Origin: an uncultured Pseudomonadales bacterium
GTDB taxonomy: Bacteria; Patescibacteriota; Microgenomatia; UBA1400; Chazhemtobacteraceae
Length of the DNA stretch: 64,000 nt
Reading direction: 5' to 3'
Assembly: GCA_964618725.1 (NCBI GenBank)
Contig: CAZUBK010000001.1
Location: forward strand, 260,908-324,907
How positions within the stretch are numbered: position 1 is the stretch's first letter; each line of letters begins with the position of its first letter. Shown in pieces: positions 54,494 to 58,745 of the stretch. The notes beneath the pieces are model-generated. The model was not told where the DNA came from. It was given only the letters and a program-made list of their open reading frames with translations, and searched no databases. Position numbers and translations under genes: made by a program.

Positions 54494-55004
54494 TCAGCAG
54501 TCCAAATTGCTTTGGACTGCCTCAGCTTTGTGATTTCACTTGGCTACTTAAAAAGTGAACAGAAACGTTGGTCGCTTCTCCTGCCCCTAACCGTTAATGG
54601 AATAACAGCTAAGAGCAGGGCGCTAAAAATTTTGTTTATCCTTCGACAATTAGTACTCATGAGCTAAATGCCTTACGGCACTTACACTTTGAGCCTATCA
54701 ACCTAGTAGTCTACTAGGTGTCTTTCGTTCTTTCGAACATGGATTCCTAATCTTGGGGTGGGTTTCCTGCTTAGATGCTTTCAGCAGTTATCCCGAATCA
54801 ATGTAGCTACCCGGCATTGCACTTGAAAGTAACAACCGGCACACTAGGGATTGACGCATCTCGGTCCTCTCGTACTAGAGACGAACCCCCTCAAGAATCC
54901 CGCGCTAGCAGCGGATAGAGACCAACCTGTCTCACGACGGTTTGAACCCAGCTCACGTAGGGTTTTAATGGGCGAACAGACCAACCCTTGGGACCTCTTC
55001 CTTC

Positions 55005-55751
55005 CATAATTACTTATGGGGCAAGACTATACCTTCACCATGTCTCTAACTGTCACCAGTTAAGACTTCAGGTGCGAACCGTGTGATAGTAGGGCCGTAG
55101 CCTTATGAAATATTGAGTCTACTATCTCATCCTTGGCGCCAAACGCCAGGAATCAGTCGTTACGGGAAATGGTGTCTTCGATCTTCGCTGCATAGTTCTT
55201 TCTTCGATTTTTGGATCGAACATTGAACCCAGCTAAAGAATCAGCCAGATGAGCGATTTTTAACAAATCATTTTTGCTTGTAATCGGAAAGGAGAGAATT
55301 TCTTTTGCTAAAGCAATTTGTTCTCCTTTCCCAACACTGTAGTTATCGATGATGTTAAGAACTTCCAGAGCTTCTGTCTGGGTTTTTAAAATCCAGTCAA
55401 AAGTATTTCTATTCTTAACCACTTTTCCTCTATTAAGTTTTCCTCTCACCCATTCAAGAACACGGGGATTAGATTGAGTAATTTTGAGAATTACCCGGAT
55501 TCTAAATCCGTATTTCTTTTCTGAATGAGACTCAATAGAAGCCATGATAGCTCCATCAGCATCAATTAGACCTGCTATATACGCTTTATTTGGTTCAGAC
55601 AACATTTTTCCCACGGTACCAACCATTAACTCATTTTTATCTGGGACCTGCAATTAGCAAGTTCCTGAAACATTATTAATGGCCTCCACCGTTTTGGGTT
55701 CGATTATTACCTCACACTTTCGTGCGAGGAGAGAAGTTAAATGTTTTCTCC
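55005..55751 (-). mobile_element. Group I intron (~747 nt) in 23S domain V carrying a LAGLIDADG homing endonuclease ORF
   Basis: The exon sequence GGGGCU | GAAGAGGUCCC (E. coli GGGGCUGAAGUAGGUCCC) is interrupted. The inferred intron starts after an exon U and ends ...AUUAUG (terminal G). It shares a core (cagtcgttacggg) with the other two insertions. Confidence 0.65.
55153..55653 (-). CDS. LAGLIDADG homing endonuclease (single-motif type), intron-encoded
   Basis: ...KAYIAGLIDADGAIMASIES... carries the canonical LAGLIDADG motif. 166 aa in the longest form; the real start may be the internal Met (MLSEPNK). Confidence 0.8.
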   Translation of the reverse strand: MQVPDKNELMVGTVGKMLSEPNKAYIAGLIDADGAIMASIESHSEKKYGFRIRVILKITQSNPRVLEWVRGKLNRGKVVKNRNTFDWILKTQTEALEVLNIIDNYSVGKGEQIALAKEILSFPITSKNDLLKIAHLADSLAGFNVRSKNRRKNYAAKIEDTISRND

Positions 55752-55775
55752 AGCCCCAGGATACCCTGAGCCGAC

Positions 55776-56010
55776 CAATTATTCCTTCTATTACTAGAGG
55801 TATGGACTATATCTTCTACTTAAATTTATAAGTAGTTTGGCGTGTTATACGTTCATAAAAAGAACATATCTCATCCTTGCGGAATCAGTCTCTACGGGGT
55901 CAATCCTTCGTTGAAAACTCAGGACGACTTCCCACGGTATTAACCTAAAATGTTCATGTTTAGGCCTCCACCGTTATAGCCAAATTTAGCCTCGACGTTC
56001 GTTGTGGTTA
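55776..56010 (-). mobile_element. ORF-less group I intron (~235 nt) in the 23S peptidyl-transferase loop (after the U of ...CUCGAU|GUCGG, E. coli ~U2504)
   Basis: Exons CUCGAU (56011-56016) and GUCGGCUC... (55771-55775 onward) flank a 235-nt insert ending in G. The core block acggggtcaatcctt also occurs in the 16S insert. Confidence 0.6.
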
Positions 56011-58745
56011 ATCGAGGTGCCGAACCGCACCGTCGCTAGGGACGCTTAGGTGCGACGAGCCTGTTATCCCCGGGGTAGCTTTTATCCGATAAGCCCGGTG
56101 CCTCCCACGAGGCACACGAGGATCACTTGGACCTACTTTCGTATCTGCTCGACTTGTATGTCTCACAGTTAAGCATCCTTATACCCATGCGCTTACAATT
56201 CCGTTTCCATCGGAATTAAGGATACCTTTGTGCGCTTGCGTTACCCTTTAGCAAGCAACCTCCCCAGTTAAACTGCCTACCAGACAGTGTCCCTACTTAC
56301 GTTTGCAGTAAGTTTAGGTGAGGATTGTATATTTCAAAAAGAGGTGTTCCATTGGCGAACCATACAAAGTAAGGTTCTCCCTCCTACGCTCGATAGTTAA
56401 AAAACACAATCCAGTGCCAAGTTGCAGTAAAGCTCCACGGGGTCTTTTTGTCCTGCTGCTAGTAGGCCGCATCTTCACAGCCATTTCAATTTCGCCGAGT
56501 CCCCTCTCAAGACAGTTGCAAAGTGGTTAAACCTTTCGTGCGCGTCAGAACTTACCTGACAAGGAATTTCGCTACCATAGAACAGTTATAGTTACTGCTG
56601 CCGTTCACTGGGGCTTCACTTGCAGCCTAGCATCTTAAAGATGATCAGCCACGCATTTAACCTTCCAGCACTGGGCAGGTTTCAGCCTGTATACTTAAGC
56701 TTTCGCTTTTGCACAGACCTGTGTTTTTGTTAAACAGTCCCTCTGCATTCTTTTGTTGTAGCCCCGCTTGCGCGGGACAGGGCATCTCCCAAAGTTACGC
56801 CCAGCTAATTTGCCGAGTTCCTTAAGAGAGGTTCTCTCGATCGCCTTGGTCTACTCGACCTGTCCACCTGTGTCGGTTTGCGGTACGGATTGCTTGTACT
56901 CTCACTGCGACGCTTTTCCCGGAAACTGAAGTCACCCAACTCGCCTTCCTTGCGGAAGACTCGTATTCACAGCTTGAATAAACGCTCTGACGGATTTGCC
57001 AATCAAAACTGTCTCACTGATTAAACGAATATAACTTCAACATACCGCTTGGGCTATCCAATTTCGTCCCGCCCCAGCTGATAACGATTACAAACAAGAA
57101 CTGGAATATAAACCAGTAATCCATCGGGTACGCTAAACGCCTCCCCTTAGGGCCGCCTAACCCAACGTCGACGAACGTTGCGTTGGAAACCTTGGACATT
57201 CGGCGTTAATGATTCTCACATTAATTTCGCTACTCATACCGGCATTCTCACTTCTTGCCGCTCCACCATTCCTTACAGAACAGCTTCAATGCAACAAGAA
57301 CGCTCCCCTACCATACACTTATATAAATATAAAAATATCCACAAATTCGGTAACATACTTGAGCCTCGATCATCTTCGGCGCCACATTCCTCGGCTAGTG
57401 AGCTGTTACGCTTTCTTTCAAGGATGGCTGCTTCTAAGCCGACCTCCTAGGTGTCCTAGCAATGTGACTTCCTTATCCACTTAGTATGTATTTAGAGACC
57501 TTATTTGGTGATCTGGGATGTTTCCCTCTCGCCCCCGGAGCTTAGCCCCCGGGTACTGATTCCCGTAGAACACTACATTGGTATTCGGAGTTTGATTGAA
57601 TTTGAACGCTTGCGCACCCAAATCCATTCAGTGCTCTACCCCCAACAAGCTTTTATACGAGACCACGCCGAGACGTGTTTCGGGGAGAACCAGCTATCTC
57701 CAGGTTCGTTTGGCATATTACCTCTAACCACAAGTCATCCGAGCAATTTGTGACTTACACCGGTGCGGGCCTCCACTAGGTTTTACCCTAGCTTCACCCT
57801 GCTCATGGTTAGCTCACCTGGTTTCGGGTCTGCCCCATACAACTTAACGCCCTGTTAGGACTTGGTTTCCCTACGGCTTCGCCATGTAATGGCTTAACCT
57901 TGCTGCATGGAACAACTCGCCGGTTCATTCTTCAATAGGCACGCGATCATCCCGATTACTCGGGACTCTCGCTGTTTGTTAGCAATTGGTTTCAGGATCT
58001 TTTCAAAGGGTGTCTCACCCGTCTTTTCACCTTTCCCTCACGGTACTAGTTCACTATCGGTCAACAAGAGTATTTAGCCTTGGACCGTGGTCGGCCCAGC
58101 TTCTCTCTAGAGTTTGCCGTCTCTAGAGGTACTCAGGGAATCCTCTGCCGATCTTAGATTTTCGCTTACGGGACTGTCACCCTCTATGGTTTCCCATTCC
58201 AGGGAATTCTTCTAATCCTTGATCTAGCGTATGAGGCCCTACAACCCCGAACCCGAAGGTTCGGTTTGGGCTGTTTCCTTTTCGCTCGTCGCTACTAGGG
58301 AAATCTCTGCGATTTCTTTTCCTCTCCCTACTTAGATATTTCAGTTCAGGAGCTTACCTGCCATTGCTGGCACATCCCGATTGCTCGGGACGGGGTTACC
58401 CCATTCGGACACCACCGGATCGATGCTTGTTTGCCAGCTCCCCGGTGATTTCGTCGACTACAAACGTCCTTCGTCGGCTCTTGTTGCCAAGGCATCCGCC
58501 AATTGCTTGAGTTGAATAAACAAAATTAATTTTATTAACGCTATTTTGATACATGATCACTCATGTATCGATGCGACCTTTGTCTTCATAGTATTACTAC
58601 TTCTTGTCGCTAATTAAATCGCAGGACGCGTTTTAGTTCCGATACAAGATTCTGAAGACAAACGTTTCTATTCACTTTTTAAAGAGCCAAGCTCCTAGAG
58701 CTTGTTACTAATCCTTTAAGGGACCAAGACAAGATCTTGAGCGTG

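Follow-up and report, generated by a model that had tools for sequence, protein, structure and literature searches.

The 23S ribosomal RNA (rRNA) gene in the stretch of 64,000 nucleotides (nt) analysed here (the window; contig CAZUBK010000001.1 of assembly GCA_964618725.1) is interrupted twice in domain V, by two group I introns that are related, share one structural type and lie 29 nt apart. It is very probable that both introns, which we call I1 and I2 in the order of transcription, are spliced out of the 23S rRNA of a bacterium of the candidate phyla radiation (CPR), and that I2 carries a gene for a homing enzyme of the I-CreI type. The case is built on the sequence itself, on covariation consistent with the proposed folds, on junctions placed by comparison and on the family membership of the encoded protein. 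An initial annotation of this DNA had proposed two group I introns approximately 30 nt apart in the gene, and in this it was right; several of its details concerning the second intron have changed, as described below.

The interrupted 23S rRNA gene

The gene matches the bacterial large subunit (LSU) rRNA model RF02541, as the initial annotation had suggested be checked, with 2002.7 bits over the full model (positions 1-2925), the 3' part being aligned down to 54631 and approximately 989 nt being skipped near model position 2560. Removal of the introns (235 + 750 = 985 nt) from the span of 3892 nt leaves 2907 nt, close to the exon length of about 2.9 kb estimated at the outset; the E. coli 23S rRNA has 2904 nt. 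In E. coli numbering, which was verified against an annotated E. coli 23S sequence, the conserved exon string GGCACCUCGAU, GUCGGCUC...CCUGGGGCU, ...GGUCCCAAGGG (read on the minus strand) is split at two points, and the RNA spliced in silico aligns with E. coli 2479-2566 without a gap. The insertions had been placed in the A-loop/P-loop region. The A-loop is helix 92 and the P-loop is helix 80, and neither is the position found here: I1 lies beside G2505 and U2506, within the central ring of the peptidyl-transferase centre, and I2 lies in the apical loop of helix 91 (H91).

Intron I1 at site L2504

The extent of I1 (235 nt, without an open reading frame (ORF)) and its position after U2504 agree with what had been annotated. 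The exon reads ...CACCUCGAU up to U2504, and resumes with GUCGGCUC at G2505. With the Rfam group I model RF00028, I1 scores 46.9 bits (E 2.6e-10) over the full model, the paired regions P1 to P9 being covered; this is just short of the gathering score of 50 bits. An internal guide sequence, GUCGAGG, begins 14 nt into the intron and pairs with exon CCUCGAU to form P1, so that a U2504·G wobble falls at the splice site, and the intron, which follows an exon U, ends in G (...AAUAAUUG). Three further introns at this site were recovered (L042, L172 and L074), all of which retain the guide and P1 and also a short P10, in which (C)CGA pairs with mini-exon UCG(G). In the small sample formed by these three and the window, P3 occurs as UUUGGC/GCCAAA, AUCAAC/GUUGAU and AUCAGC/GCUGGU, and two-sided changes are found in P3, P5, P7.2, P8 and P9. 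These features identify I1, as judged from sequence and predicted fold, as a genuine ORF-less group I intron. In L074 the L2504 intron includes a LAGLIDADG ORF that belongs to one protein family with the I2 endonuclease, and I1 is thus best described as an ORF-less representative of a mobile intron family in which such an endonuclease is encoded by other members.

A metagenome scan for L2504 introns with GCACCTCGAT-N(5-30)-GTCGAGG returned 120 loci, among which only L172 held a true L2504 intron; the remaining loci were nearly all chance matches, with no 23S 3' exon near. The protein closest to the L074 enzyme (P0061) was considered as a second L2504-type endonuclease and rejected, since it sits in another intron of the I2 site.

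Intron I2 at site L2533

The match of I2 to RF00028 is weak (23.2 bits, E 0.0035) and partly within the ORF, and its identity was established by comparison. With the ORF removed, 48 distinct homologs were aligned and 66 modelled pairs, including the P3/P7 pseudoknot, were annotated by hand. Pairing over these 66 pairs is 94.7%, two-sided changes are present in 45 of them, and none of 500 column shuffles did as well; when the 3' partners were slid by 1-3 columns, pairing fell from 87% to 39-47%. RNAalifold applied to the same alignment recovered P1, P2, P3, P4, P5, P6, P7.1, P8 and P9, and P7 (GACU/AGUC) is invariant. The covariation-supported core identifies I2 as a group I intron, such that the initially proposed check against RF00028 fares poorly for I2 in terms of score while homolog covariation recovers the core from P2 to P9. 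The low score is attributable to the 470-nt ORF in the P6 loop and to a long P5 extension. Introns are found at the same place in the 23S rRNA gene, site L2533, in 79 loci, mostly in records labelled Patescibacteria; these were drawn from 80 loci encoding relatives of the I2 endonuclease (a scan of one genome per species) together with the window and L172.

I1, I2 and a third intron, in the 16S rRNA gene of the same operon (RF00028 48.2 bits, E 2.9e-10; P1 GUCGU/GCGAC with a U·G pair), have the sequence blocks AACGGUGGAGGCC, ACCGUGGGAA, CCCGUAACGACUGA, GAAGGUAUAGUC and UAGUAAU in common, and the I2 core can be aligned block by block with the other two, in keeping with the relatedness of the three inserts that had been noticed from the start. 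All three possess P7.1 and P7.2 between P7 and P3'. In I1 these are UCC-GCAA-GGA and AUAUGUUC/GAACGUAU, and in I2 they are CCUGGCGU.../...GCGCCAAGG and GAUAGUAG/CUACUAUC; by these elements both 23S introns are assigned to subgroup IA. The I2 hairpin CCUCGCAC-GAAA-GUGUGAGG was considered as a relic of an I1-type P1 (CCUCGAU/GUCGAGG) and rejected, as it is P2 and covaries freely within the family.

The I2 junction and the size of the mini-exon

At the supported I2 junction, ...GGGGCUGGAGA is followed by the intron (AAACAUU...GGAAGGAAG) and then by AGGUCCC, placing the insertion after E. coli 2533. In the 79 loci the 5' flank always reads GGGGCU-G[GA]AG[ACU]-A and the 3' flank always ...G-A-GGUCCC, with a terminal intron G followed by A2534 in 79 of 79, so that both introns do end in G, as first reported. 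P1 is formed by UCUCU (55730..55734) and exon GGAGA (2529-2533), and the adjoining U at 55735 has as its partner the first intron base, A, or A2534 in P10. Covariation within P1 links G2530A with a C to U change and A2533C with a U to G change, and the U2533 of one locus (L044) stands opposite G; P1 thus includes exon positions 2529-2533. The boundary between 2533 and 2534 is well supported as the only junction that would give all loci both a terminal intron G and an H91 loop of 6 nt. The Rfam LSU consensus has six positions in this loop, and a 6-nt loop is present in L074, a metagenome-assembled genome (MAG) labelled Saccharibacteria whose 23S rRNA gene is without the L2533 intron. This junction replaces the 747-nt intron (55005..55751) and the mini-exon of approximately 25 nt (55752..55775) of the initial annotation, coordinates which also conflict with the exon string given alongside them. 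With A2533 as the last exon base ahead of I2, the claim that an exon U precedes both introns is likewise limited to I1. The ligated products would be expected to read ...CACCUCGAU joined to GUCGGCUC... (CGAU to GUCGG) and ...GGGGCUGGAGA joined to AGGUCCCAAGG... (GGAGA to AGGUCC).

A 5' splice site predicted to lack the U·G wobble

Among the 79 loci, the L2533 intron is preceded by an exon A in 60, by C in 18 and by U in only one, with U, G and G as the respective partners; the 48-sequence alignment shows 41 A-U, three C-G and one U·G pair at the junction. At the 5' splice site, 78 of the 79 members, including the window, where the pair is A-U, therefore have no U·G wobble. According to PMC4227781, such a wobble is critical and strongly conserved, and it marks the 5' splice site of virtually all group I introns. 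Given the A-U pair, self-splicing of I2 may be slow or dependent on protein. Tentatively, we propose that L2533 introns constitute a large natural group I family able to function without the U·G pair, spanning at least 79 species-level genomes that are mostly labelled Patescibacteria, in which the guide covaries with position 2533 and the splice site would be chosen by other contacts or with the LAGLIDADG protein. This proposal depends on the deduced junction, which is well supported.

A separate reading, in which the A-U pair has left I2 unable to self-splice and in need of its own LAGLIDADG protein as a maturase, or of a host factor, appears unlikely. The distribution of bases before the intron (60 A, 18 C, one U) would fit it, as would the intact state of an ORF that overlaps the ribozyme core. 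However, the core of I2 is otherwise fully conserved, and model ribozymes in which the wobble is replaced by a Watson-Crick pair still cleave at the right site, at reduced speed. One 23S intron, from Thermotoga, is known to have a LAGLIDADG protein resembling a maturase (PMC3984707). Neither L2504 nor L2533 came up in a literature search that also covered splice sites without a U·G pair; only a table of Floydiella introns and a paper on IStrons were relevant.

The LAGLIDADG endonuclease of I2

The ORF of I2 contains one motif, IAGLIDADG, and scores 37.7 bits (E 4e-9) with Pfam LAGLIDADG_1 (PF00961), for which the cutoff is 23.1. It had been annotated as a single-motif LAGLIDADG ORF of 166 amino acids (aa). 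The single motif and the open frame are confirmed, an in-frame TTG at 55653 giving that length (55153..55653), and it is the start that changes: most of 89 database homologs (E down to 2e-91) have 157 aa, which indicates the ATG at 55626. A profile made from 26 family members matches the structures of I-CreI, I-MsoI and I-CvuI with E values of 1e-13 to 1e-21, and I-CreI profile matches have E values of 2e-18 to 9e-21. D24 (the motif aspartate), Q51 and K100 show little or no variation across the 26 homologs, and the latter two occupy columns that align with the active site of I-CreI. On this evidence the ORF is read as an intact single-domain LAGLIDADG endonuclease of the I-CreI type, predicted to form a homodimer. 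Its activity and target site are likewise predicted: the target would be the H91 DNA of intron-less genes, ATCCTGGGGCTGGAGAAGGTCCCAAGGGT, which is nearly palindromic because it encodes a hairpin, and as such would suit a homodimer. Relatives of the endonuclease in the 80 loci are mostly in records labelled CPR or Patescibacteria.

The reading frame begins in P5'/P4' and its stop codon, UGA, lies within the P7 sequence GACUGA. P5'/P4'/P6 (UUAAUGGUUGGUACCGUGGGAA; 55600..55626 in the window) encodes the conserved N-terminus, MVxxVGK, and the joining segment J6/7 with P7 (CGUAACGACUGA; 55153..55155) the conserved C-terminus, ...ND-stop. The ORF thus overlaps the ribozyme core at both of its ends, and coding and ribozyme constraints coincide there. 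The motif GCAGGUCCCAG, just upstream of the ORF, is the 3' strand of a hairpin conserved in sequence, GGACUUGC-loop-GCAGGUCCCAGGU. At least 60 of 75 L2533 introns have it, as does the L2504 intron of L074 (2690-2710), which bears an ORF. The 3' half of this hairpin copies the 3' strand of exon H91 and shows no covariation with exon variants; the hairpin seems to travel with the ORF. TATAAT follows the motif in some loci, which prompted a search for an internal sigma-70 promoter serving the endonuclease; none was found in this window.

Alternative boundaries and fates of the inserts

The preferred boundary after 2533 has one specific competitor, that of the initial annotation, in which I2 would follow U2528 and leave a mini-exon of 24 nt and an H91 loop of 5 nt, GAAGA. 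Viewed in the window alone, the split into GGGGCU, GGAGAAAAC...GGAAG and GAAGAGGUCCC does give a canonical exon U and a terminal G, and the intron motif GGUCCCAGG could pair with exon CCUGGGGCU, U2528·G included. The homologs make this boundary very improbable. Approximately half of them (with 3' ends such as ...AACACAAAUGA before GGUCCC) would have no G at the required end or would retain a loop of only 1-4 nt; U2528 has no partner, as the base after the 3' strand of P1 is a C belonging to P2; and GGUCCCAGG sits downstream of P2-P5, forms a hairpin of its own and is constant in 15 loci with exon GGGGGU/GCUCCC. The product would in addition be 1 nt shorter than both E. coli and the intron-less allele of L074, with an expected spliced junction of GGGGCUGAAGAGGUCCC (17 nt) in place of the GGGGCUGGAGAAGGUCCC (18 nt) expected from 2533. 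As an exon-binding guide for CCUGGGGCU, GGUCCCAGG was rejected on the grounds that it shows no covariation with the exon, folds locally into a hairpin and is found in an L2504 intron too.

It is also highly unlikely that the inserts are intervening sequences (IVSs) of the RNase III type, cut out unligated to leave a fragmented 23S rRNA with a free 29-nt piece: fragmenting IVSs are known in bacterial 23S rRNA and suspected for some CPR inserts (PMC11270868), but both inserts here have a complete group I core with covariation, guides that match the flanking exons and an invariant terminal G, both occupy conserved core positions whereas short non-intron inserts cluster at the known IVS sites 23IS2 and 23IS4 and sites of non-LAGLIDADG inserts fall in less-conserved regions (PMC11270868), and a free 29-mer bearing G2505 and U2506 of the peptidyl-transferase centre would be hard to square with ribosome function.

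Several points weigh against the interpretation of I1 and I2 as two spliced group I introns with the junctions given above. I1 falls approximately 3 bits under the gathering score of RF00028 (50 bits), and I2 reaches only about 23 bits with this general model. The 5' splice site of I2, with its A-U pair, is without the wobble expected from PMC4227781, and its P10 amounts to only 2 base pairs in the window and does not covary with the exon variant G2536C. The comparison with intron-less 6-nt loops draws on E. coli and on the allele of one MAG, L074, with a divergent H91. Finally, splicing of both introns is something that we infer.

Proposed splicing and homing

In the scheme that we favour, the operon would be transcribed from the minus strand, and each intron would fold into its own ribozyme and be removed by two guanosine-initiated transesterifications, rejoining exon 1, the mini-exon (2505-2533) and exon 3 into an uninterrupted 23S rRNA of 2907 nt. 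I1 would select its 5' splice site through P1 (CCUCGAU/GUCGAGG, with the U·G pair) and align the mini-exon through its short P10 (UCG/CGA). I2 would select its 5' splice site by pairing GGAGA, the last five bases of the mini-exon, with UCUCU, and would align exon 3 via A2534 and G2535. The two introns would use opposite ends of the mini-exon, and could fold independently. The I2 enzyme would be expected to cut intron-less 23S alleles at the near-palindromic H91 DNA, leading to intron homing, and may also aid splicing.

Frequency of the twin-intron layout

A mini-exon between twin introns had been singled out as notable. Among the 79 L2533-bearing 23S rRNA genes, 32 have a second intron 22-33 nt upstream, and 47 have no nearby upstream intron. 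The upstream intron is at a 2500-like site in 23 loci (mini-exon of 33 nt), at a 2511-like site in five (22 nt) and at site 2504 in four, namely the window, L039, L042 and L172 (29 nt). LAGLIDADG-encoding group I introns have reportedly been described in CPR rRNA genes by Brown et al. in 2015. A survey of CPR genomes found inserts in 82% of 23S rRNA genes and up to 16 per rRNA gene, with group I introns concentrated in the 3' part of 23S, LAGLIDADG_1 as the commonest ORF domain of the inserts and one single-domain LAGLIDADG enzyme biochemically active (Tsurumaki et al. 2024, PMC11270868), bearing out the initial remark that rRNA introns with homing endonucleases are known in these bacteria. 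In the chloroplast rrl gene of Floydiella, group I introns at 2500 and 2511 are 11 nt apart (PMC2997540, table 4). Because of the 32 similar genes among 79, these insert rates and the 11-nt mini-exon of Floydiella, we regard the layout found here as not unusual, and as an ordinary feature of CPR rRNA genes.

The 2500-site introns of the 23 loci have GGCACCU followed by UAAC...GGGGUGC on the 5' side, with a P1 that includes a U·G pair. Eight of them (L009, L010, L013, L031, L046, L051, L055 and L057) have an A before the 3' exon CGAUGUCGG (...UGUA, then CGAU), so that the expected terminal G would be missing or the junction would lie elsewhere. Further sites occur in the same stretch in other loci (L203, at 3690-3760, and L004, L021, L032, L043 and L075): one is that of a 2511-like intron (...UG, then CAUC...), and the insert of L203 follows ...GGGUUCAAACCGU at about E. 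coli site 2593. As these sites illustrate, this part of CPR 23S rRNA genes can be described, from the predicted insertions, as saturated with introns.

Host and rRNA operon

The host is assigned to the Patescibacteria (CPR). Named homologs of the tRNA-dihydrouridine synthase (Dus) encoded in the rRNA operon belong to Patescibacteria, Peregrinibacteria and Roizmanbacteria, and these, with the CPR and Patescibacteria labels of the endonuclease relatives, uphold the CPR host suggested initially. The best match of the window's 23S rRNA among 80 named loci has 77% identity, and the host lineage is as such not closely represented among them. Some carriers of L2533 introns (L002, L003, L008, L014, L015, L016, L024, L037 and L062) are MAGs whose labels read Gammaproteobacteria, Pseudomonadales, Caldithrix, Chlamydiae, Omnitrophota or Planctomycetia, perhaps through errors of binning or labelling rather than because these are the true hosts.

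The features of the operon are collected in Table 1. The 16S-23S spacer contains, from tRNA-Ile to tRNA-Ala (58819..62340), approximately 3.5 kb of protein-coding DNA, and the set of genes in it is also found together on one Logan contig (L201).

Table 1. Positions of the rRNA operon, introns and associated elements in the window
Feature	Position	Strand	Remarks
rRNA operon	end of window	minus	at window end
5S rRNA	54374-54490		in minus-strand rRNA operon
23S rRNA, including both introns	54631..58522	minus	RF02541 match
23S exon 3	54631..54996	minus	E. coli 2534-2904; 5' end AGGUCCCAAGGG
I2, group I intron, 750 nt	54997..55746	minus	site L2533, H91 loop; endonuclease ORF in P6 loop
LAGLIDADG homing endonuclease ORF, 157 aa from ATG	55153..55626	minus	PF00961
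Conserved motif GCAGGUCCCAG	55641..55651	minus	3' strand of P5-extension hairpin, just upstream of ORF
I2 P1 3' strand, UUCUCU	55730..55735	minus	covariation with exon 2530 and 2533
Mini-exon, 29 nt, GUCGGCUCAGGGUAUCCUGGGGCUGGAGA	55747..55775	minus	E. coli 2505-2533
I1, ORF-less group I intron, 235 nt	55776..56010	minus	site L2504, RF00028
I1 internal guide sequence, GUCGAGG	55990..55996	minus	14 nt into I1
23S exon 1	56011..58522	minus	E. coli 1-2504; 3' end ...GGCACCUCGAU
tRNA-Ala	58746-58818		in rRNA operon
MBL-fold hydrolase	59117-59752	plus	opposite strand, in 16S-23S spacer
Dus	59724-60755	minus	in 16S-23S spacer
385-aa protein	60851-62008	minus	hydrophobic N-terminal segment; in 16S-23S spacer
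68-aa ORF	62101-62307	minus	in 16S-23S spacer
tRNA-Ile	62341-62414		in rRNA operon
16S rRNA	62793 to window end		in minus-strand rRNA operon
16S group I intron, ~288 nt, no ORF	63245..63532	minus	RF00028; 1-nt boundary ambiguity

Significance and comparison with known systems

This locus provides a clean and fully resolved example of the dense packing of mobile introns in CPR rRNA genes, in which two ribozymes would need to splice precisely around a 29-nt exon that bears G2505 and U2506. With the comparative set, the junction at 2533 in the H91 loop, an intron site widespread in CPR bacteria, is placed exactly, and second introns 22-33 nt upstream of it are shown to be routine. For ribozyme specialists the one point of interest is the missing U·G pair, which, if confirmed, would offer a natural system for studying the choice of a 5' splice site without that pair.

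The closest counterparts are the CPR rRNA introns of PMC11270868, which share with the present pair the host group, the gene, the clustering at conserved sites in the 3' part of 23S, the single-domain LAGLIDADG_1 proteins, the presence of ORF-bearing and ORF-less forms at one site and the occurrence of several introns per gene. That survey differs in giving rough insert positions rather than splice junctions; 2504 and 2533 are not among its named sites, and mini-exons and the missing U·G pair are not discussed in it. The rrl gene of Floydiella terrestris, with introns at 2449, 2500, 2511 and 2596, resembles the CPR genes in having several group I introns in domain V, and its sites 2500 and 2511 recur in CPR loci. 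In contrast, it belongs to an organellar genome, has no 2533 intron listed and has its sole intron ORF at site 1065 (PMC2997540). The Cr.LSU intron of the Chlamydomonas chloroplast 23S rRNA gene encodes I-CreI, a single-motif homodimeric LAGLIDADG enzyme of the same family, likewise within a 23S group I intron, but at site 2593 rather than 2533 and with another target DNA, and the similarity of the two enzymes is at profile level only. Group B IStrons (BcISt1) are, like the L2533 introns, a group I family found in nature whose 5' splice site is not placed after the usual U (PMC4227781). IStrons, however, keep a U-G pair that is shifted by one base, whereas 78 of 79 L2533 members have no U-G at or next to the junction, and IStrons carry transposase genes of insertion sequences (IS), in contrast to the homing endonuclease carried by the L2533 family.

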